Shown: positions 5,326 through 20,102 of the stretch, piece after piece
Layout of the letters: each line of letters begins with the position of its first letter
Numbering within the stretch: position 1 is the first letter of the stretch
DNA from: Patescibacteria group bacterium
GTDB taxonomy: Bacteria; Patescibacteriota; Gracilibacteria; UBA1369; UM-FILTER-53-11
NCBI GenBank assembly: GCA_038062615.1
Contig: JBBTWV010000066.1
Coordinates: forward strand, 1 to 40,961
Reading direction: 5' to 3'
DNA length: 40,961 nt
Notes under the pieces: model-generated
What the model was told of the DNA's origin: nothing
The model's input: the letters and a program-made list of their open reading frames with translations, nothing else
The model's database searches: none
Program-made: the position numbers and the translations under genes

Positions 5326-5604
5326 TTATTTGGCTGATGCTTTTACCTTTCCTTCACACTTTGTCTTCAAACTGCCATTTTTAATCTTTCCACACATCTC
5401 TAAACTCTTCGTTGCCAAAGCCTTTAAATAGATATCGCCGTCTTGAAAACTTGGAGGTGTCTCTTCCGATTTTTGAGGCTGACCAGAAACCGTCTGGCCG
5501 CTTGGAGCTTCTTCCGCCGCTGGCTTTTGGGTATCTTTTTTACCAAAACAACCCGAGAGCAAAAGCGCAGAAGCGAGCGCAAGAATGAGGAGTGATTTTT
5601 TCAT
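5326..5604 (-). CDS. Small putative lipoprotein with C-terminal Cys pair
   Basis: MKK, hydrophobic core, lipobox LLLSG-C; disordered linker; 'C.KI.....K.KC' at the C-terminus. Confidence 0.75.
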   Translation of the reverse strand: MKKSLLILALASALLLSGCFGKKDTQKPAAEEAPSGQTVSGQPQKSEETPPSFQDGDIYLKALATKSLEMCGKIKNGSLKTKCEGKVKASAK

Positions 5605-5609
5605 GGGAG

Positions 5610-5658
5610 GTTGCGCCCTTTGGGCACGTTATTTATAGCCTCGCTGAGGCTCGGCCTG
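5610..5658. repeat. Palindromic element, family A (hairpin + TAGCCTCGCTGAGGCTCGGCCTG module)
   Basis: 5636-5658 matches 18337-18359 at 22/23 nt and is preceded by a GCCC-TTT-GGGC hairpin. It fills most of the 54-nt intergenic gap. Confidence 0.8.
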
Positions 5659-6192
5659 TTAGAGGCCAAGCTGCTTGCGGATTTCTTCGGCCTTTTGAGC
5701 GTCCTCATCGGCTTTAGAAGCCTGTTGCTGGCTCATTTCGATATCTACCCAGTCTTCGTAATGTTGCTGGGCCAATTTTTCCAGTTGAGGAACATGCTCC
5801 TCACCAAGTTCGGCAAACTTCCGGCGCTCTTCTTCAAAAATCCTTATAAGCTCATCAACTTGTGACTGCTTCAGTTTTGGAATGGACTGAACAATGCGTG
5901 CTTTTTCGTCTTTGGTAAGAGAAATGGAACCTGCCAATAAATGCAGGAAGTACTGTTCATCAAAAGAAAGTTGATGAACCGGAACTTTTATATGCAAGAC
6001 AGGCCCAAGCTTGGCGCCAAGTTGAAAGTTGGCAGGCTTGCTTGGCTTTGGTGGTGGAGGAGGCGTACCTCCCATGTCACCCCCTTGGCCAGCCATCATC
6101 GGATCGTCGTAACCGCCTGGCGGCGGTAGAGGTGGGGGCGGCGGAAAACCTCCGTTATCCCCTGTTCCTTGCTGAGCAAATGGATCATCCAT
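5659..6192 (-). CDS. Hypothetical protein, Pro/Gly-rich N-terminus plus helical domain (paralogue 1 of 3)
   Basis: Likely start ATG 6192 (MDDPFAQQ). The longer track ORF extends into the divergent promoter region and overlaps the next gene. Helical core aligns with ORFs at 20278 and 31919. Confidence 0.75.
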   Translation of the reverse strand: MDDPFAQQGTGDNGGFPPPPPLPPPGGYDDPMMAGQGGDMGGTPPPPPKPSKPANFQLGAKLGPVLHIKVPVHQLSFDEQYFLHLLAGSISLTKDEKARIVQSIPKLKQSQVDELIRIFEEERRKFAELGEEHVPQLEKLAQQHYEDWVDIEMSQQQASKADEDAQKAEEIRKQLGL

Positions 6193-6286
6193 ACTGCACA
6201 AAATTCTACAACAAAGCTTTTCAGTTGAGAAGAGGAAATAAAAATTTTCTATTGAATAATCGAACTGCTGATAATAACTTGTATAC

Positions 6287-6985
6287 ATGCAATCAAGATG
6301 GTTCAAATTAAAGGCTCAAGCGATACAACTCCGAGAAGAAGGAAATTCCATTGGAGGCATTGAAAATAAGCTCCAGATACCACGCTCAACTCTCAGCGGT
6401 TGGTTTAAAAATATAAAAATATCTCAAAAACAACAAGAAATACTTCAAAATAATTGGAGAAATGCCCTTAAAAAGGCAAGAGTAAAAGCGGCTTTATGGC
6501 ATAATCATCAAAAAATAAAACGACTCCAAGAAGCACGAGATTCTGCGAAAAAAATTTTAAAAAATATTGATATAAATGATAATACTATCCTTGAGCTTGG
6601 CCTTGCGCTTCTCTATCTTGGCGAAGGAACAAAAAAGAATGATGAAACTGCGCTAGGAAATTCCGACCCCAGAGTGCTACAGTTTTTCCTCGCTATTTTA
6701 AGAAAAGTTTACAATGTGCCTATTGAAAAAATTCGCTGTCAATTAAATCTTCGAGCAGATCAAAATCCAGAGGAAATAAAACAATATTGGGCCAAAGAGC
6801 TGAGATTACCAATTGAAAGTTTTGGATATGTGAGCATTGATAAAAGAACTAAAGGAACAAAAACTTTTGCTCATTACAAAGGCGTATGCCAAATAAGATG
6901 CTCAGCAGTGGAAATACAAAGAAAATTAATCTATCTTAGTAACCTATTTTGTGACAAAGTTATCCAAGAATATTTGGGCGGTTAG
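6287..6985 (+). CDS. HTH + LAGLIDADG-like homing-endonuclease-family protein overlapping tRNA-Val
   Basis: N-terminal HTH 'AIQLREEGNSIGGIENKLQIPRSTLSGW'; LAGLIDADG-like helix 'LGLALLYLGEGTK' then 'LGNSDP..LQFF' and 'KGVCQIR'. Basic protein, visibly AT-richer than its flanks. Stop TAG is tRNA nt 8-10. Confidence 0.65.
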   Translation: MQSRWFKLKAQAIQLREEGNSIGGIENKLQIPRSTLSGWFKNIKISQKQQEILQNNWRNALKKARVKAALWHNHQKIKRLQEARDSAKKILKNIDINDNTILELGLALLYLGEGTKKNDETALGNSDPRVLQFFLAILRKVYNVPIEKIRCQLNLRADQNPEEIKQYWAKELRLPIESFGYVSIDKRTKGTKTFAHYKGVCQIRCSAVEIQRKLIYLSNLFCDKVIQEYLGG

Positions 6986-15313: not shown

Positions 15314-16717
15314 TTATTTATCTAAACCTCTGAAAAAATTCCAGATCGCAGTACCAGTGAAATTAGGCCAAGTATGAGGATAATAGCTGTGATCATATTC
15401 GGCGATATCCACATTATGAGGACACCAAATAAGAGGCGCATCGGTGCTGCAGGTATATTGGACGCAGTTGCCTACGGAAGGCTCTACTTTTACCGTTTTA
15501 TTATTGCACTGATTTTGATTTTTGAGTTGGTCACGGGCAACTTCTCCATCATGAAAAGGCACTAAGTTATCTTTAGGGTTATGCAGAATCATGGCGGCCA
15601 CCGGACCCGTGCAAGAACCCGTCGTCGTCCCACCACCAAGGGAGGCAATACCACGGATTGTGTCCCCACGGGCACACGCCAAGCTGTTGGTAAACCACGC
15701 ACCCAGTGAATGGCCAACTACAAAAATGTGATCCATATCAACACAATAACGAGTAGAGAACTCTTTCAGCAGCTGGTCAAAAAGCGCAAAATCCCGCAAG
15801 TTATTGGCTTTATCGCCGGGGCTGCTCCATGTATAGCTGCTGCCATTTTTTATGCCGCTGGGGTAAACGATAATCGCCTCTCCGCGGGAAGGTTTTTCAA
15901 TACCATAATAGCGACGCACCATTTCGTTGGAGTTGGTGCGTCCATGAAATGCAAAAATTAAGTTTTTGGGAATATTTTTTTCATAATCAGAGGGAATGAC
16001 GGTAATGTAGTTGCGTGCAACGCCATTCACCACCGAGCTCGTAGGTACTTTTTGTGGAGGATCCTTGCCGCAACCCAAAGAATTGGTGACGCGATGGTTT
16101 TGAGGCTGCTTGGTGCCCTCCTTCATGAGAATAATTTGATGCAAAATATAAGCTGCCTGTTCACGGGTAATTTCTGTTCCGGGCAAAATGGCATATTTGG
16201 AAAAAATGTTGTTGGTATGCGCAAAATCAACGAGCGCTTGGTACCACTCATCATTGGGATTATTTTGAGGAGGAGTTAAAGAACCAGCTTTAAAGCCCAT
16301 CGCAAGGGCTTCGGCAAAAAGAACATTATTGGATGGACGAAATCTTCCATCCGGATACCCGCTCACGATATTTTTCTTTTTGGCATAACACACGTAGCGC
16401 ACATACCAACCCGTTTTCACATCCTTAAAACAGCTGGGTGTAGCCGGCACGGCCACCTGGTCACCCAAATAGACTCGTAGCAGCATGGTAACCATCTCCG
16501 CACGCGTCACTTTATTTTTAGGGCCAAAGGATCCGTCCTCATAACCGCTTACCACACCCCGCTGGGCTAAAAAGGAAATACTCGCTCGATAGGTCTCACG
16601 AGCGGCTAAAATATCCGTAAAAACTGGAGGTGGTGCTTTTTGGGCGTCGCCTTGATGAAGAAAAAAAGCCGCACCGATAACGGTTCCAAAAACAGCCCAC
16701 AAAATATTTTTTAGCAT
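15314..16717 (-). CDS. SLH-domain protein fused to an alpha/beta-hydrolase (PHB depolymerase/LpqC/feruloyl-esterase-like)
   Basis: Signal peptide; three SLH repeats ('GVVSGYEDGSFGP...VTRAE', 'IVSGYPDGRFRP', 'ITREQAA'); 'LIFAFHG', nucleophile elbow GHSLG, 'H...D.LVP', terminal 'H.WP'. Confidence 0.82.
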   Translation of the reverse strand: MLKNILWAVFGTVIGAAFFLHQGDAQKAPPPVFTDILAARETYRASISFLAQRGVVSGYEDGSFGPKNKVTRAEMVTMLLRVYLGDQVAVPATPSCFKDVKTGWYVRYVCYAKKKNIVSGYPDGRFRPSNNVLFAEALAMGFKAGSLTPPQNNPNDEWYQALVDFAHTNNIFSKYAILPGTEITREQAAYILHQIILMKEGTKQPQNHRVTNSLGCGKDPPQKVPTSSVVNGVARNYITVIPSDYEKNIPKNLIFAFHGRTNSNEMVRRYYGIEKPSRGEAIIVYPSGIKNGSSYTWSSPGDKANNLRDFALFDQLLKEFSTRYCVDMDHIFVVGHSLGAWFTNSLACARGDTIRGIASLGGGTTTGSCTGPVAAMILHNPKDNLVPFHDGEVARDQLKNQNQCNNKTVKVEPSVGNCVQYTCSTDAPLIWCPHNVDIAEYDHSYYPHTWPNFTGTAIWNFFRGLDK

Positions 16718-16769
16718 CTTCACGCATCCTTATTATACTGTTCGCCATTCATTTTGTTACTATAATATA

Positions 16770-16852
16770 CGCGAAGACCTCATTCAGTCGCCAATCGCGG
16801 GGACGCTCTGGCTCCTTCACTCGGTCTTCGCGGCCTCGCCGTGCTCGGCCTA
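16770..16852. repeat. Palindromic element: long hairpin plus family-A module
   Basis: CGCGAAGACC (16770-16779) pairs with GGTCTTCGCG (16823-16832), followed by GCCTCGCCGTGCTCGGCCTA (16833-16852). It lies just downstream of TATAAT at 16761-16766. Confidence 0.75.
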
Positions 16853-16879
16853 GCAAGGAAGAATTAATTAATAGTGAAT

Positions 16880-18190
16880 ATGAAGACCATTGGAATTATT
16901 GGCGGAGGTGCAGCGGGAATGATGGCAGCATGCCTTGCAAAAGAGCAAAATCCGGATTCGCATGTGATGCTTTTTGAAAAAAATGCCTATTTGGGAGCTA
17001 AAGTTATTATTAGTGGTGGAGGCAGATGCAACGTCACCACCGGCATTACCGACGTCCGAGAACTTTTAAAAAATTACCCGCGAGGTGCCAAATTTTTAAT
17101 GACCGCGCTGTATCGCTTTCCGCCAGAAAAAGTCATGCAGTGGTTTGAAAATCACGGCGTGCCGCTAAAAACCGAAGAAGATCTGCGGGTTTTTCCAAAA
17201 TCAGATAACGGCAAGGATGTGGTTGGAGCGCTAGAAAAAGAAATGCGCAAAAAAAATGTTAAAATCTTCTGCAAAGCACCCGTGCAAAGCATTACGCAAA
17301 AGGTTGCCCCGACGTCACGTCGGGGCATTATTGGCTTAGCCTCCCCACGGCTCGGCCTAAAAGAGAAAAAATTCGTCATCACGCAGCAAGATGGAAAAGC
17401 TTACGAATGCGACGCCGTCATCATAACCACCGGAGGCAATGCTTATAGGCACACAGGCTCCACAGGCGACGGTTACGCATTTGCGCAGTCCCTAGGGCAT
17501 ACCATCACTCCCCTTGCCGCTTCCCTCAGCTCATTCAACGCCGCTGAACCTTGGGTCAAAAATCTTGCGGGTGTGTCGTTTGAAAAAGCTGCATTTACAT
17601 TCGCGCGTGAAGGCAACTCCAAAACATATGAACGAACCGGCGCGTTTGTATTTACCCACCGCGGCGTGAGTGGCCCAGCCGTATTCGCTCTCTCTAGTTT
17701 TTGCGCCTATGAGGCCATTTCACCGCAAACATCGTGGCAGCTCACCATCGATTTTTTCCCTGATGAGTCCACCCAATCTTTCACAAAACGATTCCAGAAT
17801 CTTGTCCTCAAAAATCCCAAAAAAAATATTGAAAACTTTTTAGACATGCTTCTGCCAAAATCACTCTGTGGAGCCGTCTTAGAAGTTTCTGGCGCAGCGT
17901 CCACTCTGATGGCTGGCAGCCTCAGCAAACAAAACCGAGAAAAAATAATCAGTCTATTAAAAGGATTTCCACTCACCATTATAGGACGGAGCGCCGGAGA
18001 AGAGTTTGTAACCGCCGGAGGAGTAAGCCTGAGTGAGGTAAATACCAACACCATGGAATCAAAAATCTGCCCAGGACTCTTTTTTGCGGGCGAGATTCTT
18101 GATATTGATGGATTTACCGGCGGCTTTAATCTTCAAGCTTCGTGGGCCACTGGAGCCTTAGCGGGTGAATGCGCGTCCGCATTTTTATAA
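16880..18190 (+). CDS. HI0933/BaiN/YhiN-family flavoprotein (NAD(P)/FAD oxidoreductase)
   Basis: 'IIGGGAAGMMAA', 'KVIISGGGRCNVT', 'GSTGDGY..A..LGH', 'FTHRGVSGPA', 'VTAGGV', 'GLFFAGEILDIDG.TGGFNLQ'. Carries a 19-codon repeat insertion. Confidence 0.92.
   Translation: MKTIGIIGGGAAGMMAACLAKEQNPDSHVMLFEKNAYLGAKVIISGGGRCNVTTGITDVRELLKNYPRGAKFLMTALYRFPPEKVMQWFENHGVPLKTEEDLRVFPKSDNGKDVVGALEKEMRKKNVKIFCKAPVQSITQKVAPTSRRGIIGLASPRLGLKEKKFVITQQDGKAYECDAVIITTGGNAYRHTGSTGDGYAFAQSLGHTITPLAASLSSFNAAEPWVKNLAGVSFEKAAFTFAREGNSKTYERTGAFVFTHRGVSGPAVFALSSFCAYEAISPQTSWQLTIDFFPDESTQSFTKRFQNLVLKNPKKNIENFLDMLLPKSLCGAVLEVSGAASTLMAGSLSKQNREKIISLLKGFPLTIIGRSAGEEFVTAGGVSLSEVNTNTMESKICPGLFFAGEILDIDGFTGGFNLQASWATGALAGECASAFL
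17303..17358. repeat. Palindromic element family A, in frame within HI0933 gene
   Basis: TGCCCCGACG-TCA-CGTCGGGGCA hairpin plus GCCTCCCCACGGCTCGGCCT; 46/56 identical to 18303-18358. Confidence 0.9.
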
Positions 18191-18195
18191 GCGGA

Positions 18196-18239
18196 CGGCT
18201 GTTAACAAAAAGTTCATAAAAAGTTTAAGAAAAGTTCAT
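18196..18239. promoter_or_regulatory. Phased 11-bp direct repeats upstream of comF (candidate regulator boxes)
   Basis: AAAAAGTTCAT / AAAAAGTTTAA / GAAAAGTTCAT at 18207-18239, plus an in-phase GTT unit at 18196-18206. Confidence 0.45.
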
Positions 18240-18278
18240 GAATGACTGCTAGGCTGAAAGAAATTTTCAGCCATTTTC

Positions 18279-18988
18279 ATGAAACTCCTACGCTCGAATA
18301 ATGTTGCCCCGACATCTTGTCGGGGCATTAATTTCTTAGCCTCGCTGTGGCTCGGCCTGCTAGATTTTTTATTTCCTATTTCATGTGTGGGATGTGCTGC
18401 TGGAAAAACACACTGCTGCCAGCTCTGCTGGGCAAACATTTCAAATCATAGGCCAACCATTCAAAAAATTTCACATGCCGATAATGAACCTGGACTGGAT
18501 GGAATTATTTATGCTGCGGTTCATCAAGAAAAATCACCTCTCTCACAACTTATTCATCGTTTAAATATGACGGCGCGCAGGAAATTGGCAAAATTTTGGC
18601 GCAATTTTTTATAAACATAAAATCACCAGCAGATTTCTCGATCCTCATCCCGGTGCCTCTTCATCCACGCCGACATCGCTTCCGAGGTTTTAATCAAAGC
18701 AAAATTCTGGCTCAAGAAATAGGCAAATACTGGCAAAGTCCGGTACAAGAAATCTTAAAACGCCACCGTTACACTCCCCCGCAAGTGGAACTGAGTCGAA
18801 ACAATCGGCTCAAAAATGTGCGTGGTGCATTTTCTCTCATATATGGCACCCGCATCAACCCGCAAGCAACCTACTTTCTCATTGACGATGTCTGCACTAC
18901 TGGAACCACCCTTCGCGAGTGCGCACGAGTTCTTAAACATCACGGCGCCCAAAAAGTCTGGGGCTTCGTCATCGCTCGCGCCCTGTGA
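18279..18988 (+). pseudogene. comF: ComF family phosphoribosyltransferase, split by a -1 frameshift near 18560-18566
   Basis: Frame 1 has 'LLDFLFP..C.GC....C..C' and 'LIHR'. The -1 frame continues 'KYDG.QEIGKILA', 'IPVPLH..R...RGFNQS' and 'LIDDVCTTGTTL'. It may be a pseudogene, an assembly error or a recoded gene. Confidence 0.8.
18303..18358. repeat. Palindromic element family A, in frame within comF 5' end
   Basis: TGCCCCGACA-TCT-TGTCGGGGCA plus TAGCCTCGCTGTGGCTCGGCCT; read in the same frame as the 17303 copy. Confidence 0.9.
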
Positions 18989-19001
18989 TACCCTGCAAAT
19001 A

Positions 19002-20102
19002 ATGAAGATCGCCCTCGTCCACGACTACCTTACCCGGCTTGGCGGCGCTGAGCGGGTTTTAAAATGCCTCAGCGAGCTTTTTCCGCAGGCGCCCATCTAC
19101 ACCCTGCTCTATGACGAAGCCAAAGTCGGTGAGGTTTTCCCAAAAAATAAAATCATTACTTCGCGTCTGCAAAAATGGCCGGCGTTTTTACGCAAACACC
19201 ACCGTTACCTTGTATCCATGCTGCCGCGGCTGGTGGAAGAGTGGGATTTTTCGGATTTTGACTTGGTAATTACCTCCAGCAGCGCTTTTACCCACGGCAT
19301 CATCACTCCCACAAAGACTCATCACCTCTGCTACTACCACTCACCCATGCGCTTTGCTTGGGACTGGACGCATGAGTACATCCAAGAACAGCGCATCGGT
19401 CCCCTGCGCAAAATCGCCATTGCTCACATCCTCAAAAAGCTTCGAATGTGGGACCAAACGGTTTGTGATCGGCCAGATACTATCATCGCCAACTCACAGC
19501 ACGTAGAACGGCGAATCAAAAAATATTATCACCGCGATGCTCAAGTTATCTATCCGCCGGTGGATATTTCCCGCTTTCAAATTTCAAAAAGAAAGGCTGC
19601 TCCTGAAGATTTTTTCTTGATTATCTCAACCCTTACGCCCTATAAACGCGTAGATTTGGCCGTCCAGCTCTTTAACAAAATCGGCAAAAAACTAGTGATC
19701 ATTGGGGATGGACCGCAACGTGAATTTCTACAAAATATTGCTGCAGAAAATATTCAATTTTTGGGATATCAGAGTGATGAAGCCGCTGCGGAGTATTTGC
19801 AAAACTGCCGCGCCATGATTTTTCCCGGCGAGGAAGATTTTGGAATCACGCCCATTGAAGCTATGGCTTGCGGAAAACCGGTGCTGGCTTACGGCCAAGG
19901 TGGCGTAACAGAATCCGTTATTGCTGGGGTAACCGGAGAGTTTTTTCATCAACCTACGGTAACTTCCATGGAGCAGGGTTTGGCACAGCTCATCCTCAAC
20001 GAAAAAAATTACGATCCGGCGGCATGCAGAAGACAGGCCGAAAAATTCACCAAGGAGATCTTTGTGGATCAGATTAAAAAAATCGTAAAAACGATAGCTT
20101 AG
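19002..20102 (+). CDS. Glycosyltransferase family 4 (GT-B)
   Basis: Start ATG 19002 (MKIALVHDYL..LGGAERV); 'YYHSPMR', 'IANS', 'YKRVDL', 'EEDFGITPIEAMACGKPV' (EX7E). Confidence 0.9.
   Translation: MKIALVHDYLTRLGGAERVLKCLSELFPQAPIYTLLYDEAKVGEVFPKNKIITSRLQKWPAFLRKHHRYLVSMLPRLVEEWDFSDFDLVITSSSAFTHGIITPTKTHHLCYYHSPMRFAWDWTHEYIQEQRIGPLRKIAIAHILKKLRMWDQTVCDRPDTIIANSQHVERRIKKYYHRDAQVIYPPVDISRFQISKRKAAPEDFFLIISTLTPYKRVDLAVQLFNKIGKKLVIIGDGPQREFLQNIAAENIQFLGYQSDEAAAEYLQNCRAMIFPGEEDFGITPIEAMACGKPVLAYGQGGVTESVIAGVTGEFFHQPTVTSMEQGLAQLILNEKNYDPAACRRQAEKFTKEIFVDQIKKIVKTIA

Follow-up and report, generated by a model that had tools for sequence, protein, structure and literature searches.

Rickettsia palindromic elements (RPEs; Ogata et al. 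2000/2002) are described in a 2024 review as repeats of ∼150 bp, with 44 integrations in genes of R. conorii and with in-frame fusions (PMC10969869). Genomes of the Candidate Phyla Radiation (CPR) are tiny and gene-dense, and they are usually described as poor in mobile DNA. Here we analyse a stretch of 40,961 nt (the window; contig JBBTWV010000066.1 of assembly GCA_038062615.1, forward strand) from an uncultured groundwater CPR bacterium of the Peribacteria/Peregrinibacteria, in which a short palindromic repeat stands in frame in two genes, one encoding an HI0933-like flavoprotein and the other a comF-type phosphoribosyltransferase. In the reading that we prefer, with a probability of about 0.85, the copies belong to a small, non-autonomous, selfish dispersed repeat of the size of miniature transposable elements with inverted repeats (MITEs) or repetitive extragenic palindromic (REP) sequences and of RPE-like behaviour. 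A sequence-only reading of this DNA had proposed such a coding-tolerant repeat in a CPR genome, and the number of copies, the in-frame inserts and the empty orthologous sites described below support the proposal. Literature searches retrieved no description of the present repeat family, and the available parts of the 2016 Peribacteria genome paper do not mention such a repeat.

The two genic copies occupy positions 17300-17359, in the HI0933-like gene, and 18300-18359, in the first codons of comF (Table 1). Their starts lie exactly 1000 nt apart, which is taken as coincidence. The sequence-only reading had described a 56-nt repeat with 46 identical positions, in the same orientation and frame in both genes. 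The resemblance is as described: GTTGCCCCGACGTCACGTCGGGGCATTATTGGCTTAGCCTCCCCACGGCTCGGCCTA begins at 17303, its near-copy at 18303, and the first 56 bases differ at 10 positions. The length is not, and the inserted unit measures 60 nt. Both copies begin on a codon boundary of their open reading frame (ORF), at 17300 − 16874 = 426 and 18300 − 18279 = 21, and therefore share orientation and element frame. Copy 1 encodes K-VAPTSRRGIIGLASPRLGL, and copy 2, which follows the first seven comF codons, is read as VAPTSCRGINFLASLWLGL. The stem pattern GCCCCGACN5GTCGGGGC (GCCCCGACNNNNNGTCGGGGC) has exactly two matches in the window, 17306-17326 and 18306-18326, both on the forward strand; 0.01 matches are expected by chance, and none of 100 shuffles contained two or more.

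Table 1. Coordinates of the repeat copies, their hairpins and the host genes in the window
Feature	Positions	Strand	Description	Score, covariance model R1
Host gene 1	16874..18190	+	HI0933-like flavin adenine dinucleotide (FAD) flavoprotein, 438 amino acids; Pfam HI0933_like 265.8 bits, residues 8-434	
Copy 1	17300..17359	+	60-nt long-stem form	66.3 bits, E 1.2e-18
Hairpin 1 of copy 1	17305..17327	+	10-bp stem, 17305-17314 with 17318-17327; loop TCA	
Hairpin 2 of copy 1	17333..17357	+	AGCC/GGCT core with weak outer extension; from the fold	
Host gene 2	18279..18988	+	comF-type phosphoribosyltransferase; split into ORFs 18279..18614 and 18596..18988	
Copy 2	18300..18359	+	60-nt long-stem form	65.1 bits
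Copy 3	5605..5659	+	short-stem form	57.4 bits

Comparison with orthologues identifies both copies as insertions. The HI0933-like protein was matched in 23 of 31 related genomes and aligned with 11 orthologues of 53-69% identity, 10 of which show a clean gap at the insert; the closest carries five other residues (GLAHT) there. The GLAHT stretch (L021:1498-2745, the orthologue in genome G002) has no match to the hidden Markov model (HMM) of the element, its DNA holds GGCTCGG...GGCCT, and it may be a decayed remnant or a coincidence. Homologues with structures in the PDB are 2i0z, 4cnj and 2gqf. The 4cnj sequence aligns on both sides and leaves a gap of 20 residues at kvaptsrrgiiglasprlgl, which sets the inserted unit at 60 nt (17300-17359), and the 2i0z alignment breaks into two stretches at the same place. 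An AlphaFold2 model built with the orthologues (mean predicted local distance difference test, pLDDT, 83.5; the HI0933-like protein is the only host that was modelled) shows coil at residues 145-164, flanked by strands 137-144 and 165-171 and of pLDDT below 50 at 147-162, so that the earlier placement of the insert between two beta-strands holds. The six comF orthologues of the family have 3-15 residues before LDFLFPxxCxxC, and the element is absent from all six; altogether it is absent from 28 orthologous HI0933 or comF loci. The shared 19 residues could instead form a conserved motif of proteins, or a small domain, that has its own function, an idea that draws on the same peptide being read in the same frame in two proteins. 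It is scarcely credible and already contradicted, by the orthologues that lack the peptide, by the disordered loop in the predicted structure, and by the wider family, in which different genes use three different frames of the same DNA and 34 of the 78 copies are not in ORFs.

Both copies belong to a large family. The genome of the window (G000) is a metagenome-assembled genome (MAG) of 1,383,857 bp in 100 contigs, 95.5% complete. An HMM was built from seven full-length matches and iterated once, and a search with nhmmer returned 78 copies at E<1e-5 and 15 further ones at E<1e-2. A covariance model (CM R1) built from 62 copies found 91 copies at E<=0.001, so that the further copies implied by a dispersed repeat are indeed present. 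Exactly three CM matches fall in the window (17298-17360, 18298-18360 and 5605-5659), and the third copy fills the spacer between the stop of the minus-strand ORF 5659..6306 and the start of the minus-strand ORF 5326..5604. Units are 54, 57 or 60 nt long, with a rarer form of ∼90 nt. The family consensus is AAGGTT-GCGCCC-TTY-GGGCGC-ATTAWTTGCTT-AGCCTCG..CGGCT-CGGCCT-R, that is, AA-GGTT, hairpin 1, ATTAWTNGCTT, hairpin 2 (AGCC..GGCT with a variable apex) and CGGCCT-R. Hairpin 1 has a stem of 6 bp (GCGCCC..GGGCGC) in the majority of copies, and the long form, GCCCCGAC..GTCGGGGC, occurs in 12-14 copies that include both genic copies of the window. The apex of hairpin 2 reads CAC, CTGA/CTGT, CCTCGA or TGACG. 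The ∼90-nt form (at least 7 copies) carries a 36-nt insert in that apex, itself a hairpin, GATGCCTTAGCATC; examples in G000 are C80:4473-4565, C37:2402-2495, C75:1134-1226, C20:2729-2820 and C22:7978-8068, and the form is common in genome G003 too. The structural variants thus differ by multiples of three, with cores of 51, 54, 57 and 60 nt and an apex insert of 36 nt. Rfam gave no match at E<=1 over 16500-19500. At C49:18717-18853 of G000, two to three copies of a 57-nt variant stand head to tail in a small tandem array.

In the fold of both genic copies, a 10-bp stem closes a 3-nt loop and is joined by a second, weaker hairpin; the minimum free energy is -32 kcal/mol for copy 1. Fold z-scores against shuffles are -4.5 for copy 1 and -3.6 for copy 2 on the plus strand, and -4.3 and -6.7 on the minus strand. 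Family-wide, pairing in hairpin 1 is 91-97%; on 63 copies it is 95-97%, and eight of the nine pairs show changes on both sides. G-C has become C-G in 13 copies and C-G has become U-A in 3, and the sixth pair is C-G in 26 copies, G-C in 10, A-U in 4 and U-A in 2. None of 500 shuffles reached the observed covariation score, and slid controls were paired in 24-55% of cells. The sequence-only reading had based conservation of the hairpin on a compensatory change (G-C vs A-T) between the two genic copies. The difference is real and by itself weak evidence, the apical position being paired in 5 of 12 long-stem copies; conservation itself stands on covariation that sits lower in the stem. In hairpin 2, the basal 4 bp are nearly invariant with zero covariation, and the apex differs among subfamilies. 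An outer extension of hairpin 2 (GGCT..CGGCC) was rejected, since its 5' side is variable and its 3' side constant. A terminal helix, AGGTT/GGCCT, is possible; it holds two conserved G.T pairs and is 87.7% paired, with no pair changed on both sides.

The position of copies relative to genes was determined with a crude set of 1286 ORFs (minimum 80 amino acids, greedy non-overlap choice) that covers 91.5% of G000. The 78 copies comprise 34 that lie clear of any ORF, 11 that overlap an ORF end, 12 no more than 50 codons from the most upstream possible start, 6 no more than 20 codons from the stop, and 15 internal ones. Non-ORF DNA, 8.5% of the genome, thus holds 44% of copies, a pattern that purifying selection predicts. 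Many copies abut start or stop codons. Those at gene ends provide terminal residues and stop codons; the ORF of FolD terminates within a copy, and ComF starts ahead of one.

For the frame analysis, 70 of the 78 copies could be anchored on their 3' end. Twenty-one of these lie in ORFs with 40 or more open codons to either side, and all use the three stop-free frames: 11 copies read KVAPxGRIxxLASPRLGL, 4 read GCAxxAHxxSLxxARP, and 6 read RPSRGEAKQIMRPxGAT from the reverse strand. Each of the remaining three frames of the consensus holds TAG or TAA; open frames served in the detection of these copies, and the frame count is accordingly not an independent test. Pfam families were found for 16 of 20 host ORFs; among the 4 ORFs without a family, one (C17) is probably not a gene. 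Pfam envelopes cross the insert in HI0933_like, UvrD_C, LplA-B_cat, ABC_tran, NTP_transferase, RibD_C, FAD_binding_3, GSH-S_N and GshA, and the copy in a P-type ATPase lies between the E1-E2_ATPase and Cation_ATPase domains. In-frame insertion, which the sequence-only reading had noticed in two proteins, is therefore general and affects at least nine different enzymes within Pfam domains. The ABC ATPase shows an 18-residue gap against MJ0796 at the element, which is read there in the third frame, and the UvrD-type helicase has surplus residues at the element relative to PcrA. The core length is a multiple of three in all 15 internal copies and in 21 of 33 copies outside ORFs; multiples of three are frequent there too because 51, 54 and 57 nt, plus 3, are the usual sizes. 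Other repeat families have contributed a second in-frame insert to both the ABC ATPase gene (C86:10166-10339, L008) and the TilS gene (C42:13635-13754, L001). Copies of the former type are found on C78, C64, C34, C29 and C93 and of the latter on C54 and C94, and ∼40 residues of the ABC protein are without a counterpart in MJ0796.

In-gene copies might be skipped by ribosomal bypassing or cut from the RNA instead of being translated. Precedents are the hop in phage T4 gene 60 and the mitochondrial 'byp' elements, and the compact, GC-rich hairpin, 54-60 nt long and embedded in coding DNA, falls in the size class of known bypass elements. We consider this very improbable. Bypassing requires neither the multiple-of-three length of all 15 internal copies nor the freedom from stops of all 21 in-ORF copies, the open frames having partly been used in detection. 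In-silico excision flagged 12 copies at which a long ORF appears on removal of the element, a test that over-calls disrupted genes because removal often deletes the stop codon of the neighbour. Five flagged pairs of flanking ORFs were checked by Pfam; two are different complete genes (HisD/HisC and FolD/PurF), and in the other three one or both ORFs are without a family. The GshA/GshB pair and the window pair at 5605 are likewise separate genes.

The element is restricted to one family. CM searches of the 11 genomes of this family found 91 copies in G000, 39 in G003, 33 in G004, 21 in G006, 3 in G001 and 2 in G009, and none in G002, G005, G007, G008 and G010, so that 6 of the 11 carry it. No CM match was found in 110 genomes from 18 other families of the order (E<=1e-8, stricter filters), which makes the element a sharp lineage marker. 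A simple pattern search agrees with this distribution, with no hits of the reversed-pattern controls in element-bearing genomes. In viral contigs, a loose pattern gave at least 120 hits, none of them real among 80 CM-screened loci (best 15.9 bits), and a specific 22-mer pattern gave 0 hits, the share of G000 copies that this pattern catches not having been measured.

Empty sites are also found in the opposite direction, since the G000 orthologues of genes that carry the element in G004, G006 and G001 are without it. Among 22 copies of relatives that were examined, 7 have syntenic flanks in G000; 5 of these spacers are empty there, and the other 2 represent a YfiH-like orthologous gene that has acquired independent insertions in G000 and G004, at different sites and in opposite orientations. 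Neither genic copy of the window is an assembly artefact. Contigs from public runs, X2 from the same study as the likely source and X3-X5 from a second study, are identical across them (X2, 16900-18520; X3, 17168-17396 and 18081-18362; X4, 18271-18534; X5, 17210-17450 and 18042-18400), and the only contig joint seen, 18018>18107 (side 23), is unrelated to either copy.

Taken as a selfish dispersed repeat, the element would have multiplied within one Peribacteria family after its genera had separated. Copies would land anywhere, and selection would remove those that break genes. Survivors would then be copies in short spacers and at gene ends, together with in-gene copies that fell into a stop-free frame, one of three, at a surface site that tolerates them. 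An in-gene element would be transcribed and translated with its gene and would form a disordered loop, 17-20 residues long and rich in Gly, Pro, Ser, Arg and Ala. We infer that it is translated rather than removed and that it brings no benefit, being neutral or slightly harmful, and it would move as a folded single strand.

Several observations weigh against this reading. No contig of the four runs X2-X5 skips either copy, as might be seen at an empty site in the population, although contigs drop rare variants. Target-site duplications are absent; flank matches at k=3-6 number 27, 14, 3 and 1, against shuffled means of 25.1, 8.9, 3.0 and 0.9, and do not exceed those of shuffled flanks. G000 has no match to Y1_Tnp (PF01797), TnpB zinc-ribbon (PF07282), DDE_Tnp_1 (PF01609), rve (PF00665), Transposase_20 (PF02371), DDE_3 (PF13358) or REP_Tyr_transpos (NF047646), and with no transposase found, mobility is deduced solely from the distribution of copies; the absence is itself weak evidence, because G000 is an incomplete MAG in 100 contigs and MAGs can lose insertion sequence (IS) copies. 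In-gene copies fit the family HMM slightly better than the others (median 54.3 vs 47.4 bits; Mann-Whitney p 0.023), which would not be expected from neutral decay alone. Of the copies between co-directional genes, 12 stand antisense and 3 sense, a skew that hints at a degree of selection acting on the transcript; it could reflect a weak polar or terminator effect, because in sense orientation hairpin 1 is followed by a U-rich tract. Both observations, like the terminal residues and stop codons that copies provide at gene ends, are hints of some selection, and all depend on small numbers.

The orientation skew also bears on the suggestion that the element is not selfish DNA but a functional RNA or DNA signal under selection, for instance a terminator, an attenuator, a stabiliser of mRNA or a site at which a protein binds. 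Covariation in hairpin 1 fits such a signal, as do the many copies that adjoin start or stop codons, and in the plus orientation hairpin 1 precedes AUUAUUUGCUU, which resembles a weak intrinsic terminator without being a clean U run. This is nevertheless improbable. All five syntenic spacers with unshared copies are empty in G000, the 28 orthologous loci are without the element, and half of the sister genomes have none at all. Moreover, insertions into the orthologous YfiH-like gene differ in site and orientation between G000 and G004, both orientations occur inside genes, and Rfam recognises no family here.

How a selfish repeat of this kind moves can be approached from its ends. Next to the core stand A-A on the 5' side (0.7 and 1.1 bits at -2 and -1) and G/A on the 3' side, and the inserted length equals the core plus 3. 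These three bases may belong to the unit, because the inserts at empty sites measure 18 and 20 residues. On the consensus, AAGGTTGCGCC and the reverse complement of the 3' end agree in 8 positions out of 11. As a model of movement only, the element could be a REP or REPIN (REP doublet forming a hairpin), or a minimal palindrome-associated transposable element (PATE) derived from IS200/IS605, and a Y1 HUH tyrosine transposase would then cut and paste it in trans, as folded single-stranded DNA. A subterminal hairpin at each end and the lack of a target duplication fit this model, the conserved 5' A-A could be part of a target tetranucleotide, and the terminal helix with its two conserved G.T pairs would work on one strand only. 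Element-bearing G003 has a full IS200-type Y1 gene (C77:324-683; 134 bits), the only clear one among five genomes searched, and four further Y1 fragments on contigs C101, C90, C64 and C28, three of them at or near contig ends.

We nonetheless regard the Y1 model as unlikely. Y1_Tnp and REP_Tyr_transpos are without a match in G006 and G001 as in G000, G004 has a Y1_Tnp fragment only (E 0.002) and no REP_Tyr_transpos, and the G003 gene scores 31.5 bits against REP_Tyr_transpos, where the cut-off is 80. The flanks of the G003 gene hold no element copy, and the Y1 copies of that genome share no DNA with one another, so that IS200 ends are not definable. In G000 the open frame of LeuRS, at 838 amino acids, has about the usual size of a bacterial LeuRS, and with PF01797 unmatched in the genome it gives no sign of an embedded HUH module. 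The sequence-only reading had proposed a partner of the RAYT (REP-associated tyrosine transposase) or HUH type, and these matches do not bear it out in G000; the GIY-YIG nuclease proposed along with it was not searched for. Large serine recombinases were rejected as a mobiliser, as three occur in G000 and none in element-bearing G006 and G001.

There is a bolder form of the selfish-repeat reading, to which we would give a small chance: that the family is adapted to life inside coding DNA and is perhaps moved by an activity outside the known transposase types. Arguments for it are the multiple-of-three variants, the three stop-free frames that encode loops rich in Gly, Pro, Ser and Arg, in-gene copies that are not more decayed than intergenic ones, and the finding that in four of the five element-bearing genomes searched no Y1, TnpB or DDE enzyme was found. 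If true, the repeat would be selected at the level of the element to be translatable while colonising a 91%-coding genome, and it would be a steady source of new surface loops in CPR proteins.

The surroundings of the two host genes hold further repeats and motifs. At 16770-16860 of the window lies a different repeat of ∼90 nt, with at least 8 partial copies in G000, which ends ∼20 nt before the start codon of the HI0933-like gene. Its 3' module, CCTCGCCGTGCTCGGCCTA, is common to the element studied here, and it ends in GCAAGGAAGAA, which resembles a ribosome-binding site; the shared termini could mean shared mobilisation. Upstream of comF, at 18201-18242, stand three tandem 11-nt units (GTTNANAAAAAGTT-like), and in four sister genera (L057, L059, L060 and L062) comF is preceded by a similar TTCATAAAAAGTTTAGAAAAATTTCAT motif, which may mark a conserved promoter or operator. 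Relatives L058, L059, L061 and L062 have another palindromic element, CCAGAGCGGGAC...CTCCCCCGCTCTGG, just upstream of comF, and this element is absent from G000.

The comF gene itself is split in the window by a one-base difference in a run of three T at 18559/18560. The X2 contig has one extra T behind 18559, which restores the frame and gives HRFKYDGAQEIG, matching the orthologues, which read HRFKYDGA through this point. The split is either an assembly error or a population polymorphism, and because the X2 contig restores the orthologue frame, at least some of the population probably has an intact comF. The stretch from the element to LDFLFP has no in-frame ATG, GTG or TTG in the G000 gene, so that translation must start at the ATG at 18279 and read through the element.

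With ∼90 sites in 1.38 Mb, the repeat has remodelled at least 15 conserved enzymes, including both enzymes of glutathione synthesis, the P-type ATPase, the UvrD-type helicase, RibD, LplA and the products of the two window genes, and it has altered gene termini too, as at the N-terminus of ComF and the C-terminus of FolD. It offers a system for studying how proteins tolerate or recruit random loops and how an element can move without a visible transposase. In the annotation of CPR MAGs, spurious insertions, odd start sites and split alignments can result from such an element.

Among known repeats, REP sequences and REPINs share with the present family a short GC-rich hairpin, frequent occurrence in spacers and the lack of a target duplication. 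REP motifs have a GTAG head, and the consensus of the present repeat does not. In contrast to REPIN-RAYT systems, no RAYT or Y1 gene was found in G000, the two hairpins differ and do not form an inverted doublet, and about a quarter of copies lie in coding sequence. Restriction to extragenic DNA, typical of REP sequences, is not seen either, since 15 of the 78 copies are internal and 18 lie within ORF termini. Compared with bacterial MITEs, the in-gene share of copies is much higher than is typical. The family differs from MITEs also by the absence of a target-site duplication, by termini that match imperfectly (8/11) and by the lack in G000 of a parent IS with the same ends. It resembles those MITEs for which in-frame insertions are described, among them ERIC (enterobacterial repetitive intergenic consensus) and the Anabaena MITEs, in being small, non-autonomous and structured, with occasional in-frame ORF fusions (PMC10969869).

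The closest likeness is to the RPEs, as far as the excerpted descriptions go. Both are dispersed palindromic repeats of small, gene-dense genomes of which many copies stand in frame in unrelated housekeeping genes and keep the ORF open; in both, the encoded segment lies where the fold tolerates it, and no transposase is known. The differences are a host from an unrelated phylum (Peribacteria, CPR), a length of 54-60 nt vs ∼150 bp (PMC10969869), two different hairpins vs one long palindrome, and the use of three reading frames. On the strength of size and host as given in those descriptions, and not of a sequence comparison, we do not file the repeat under RPE-1 to RPE-10 proper of Rickettsia, families of ∼100-150 bp. 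It would instead represent a second, independent natural example of the RPE phenomenon.

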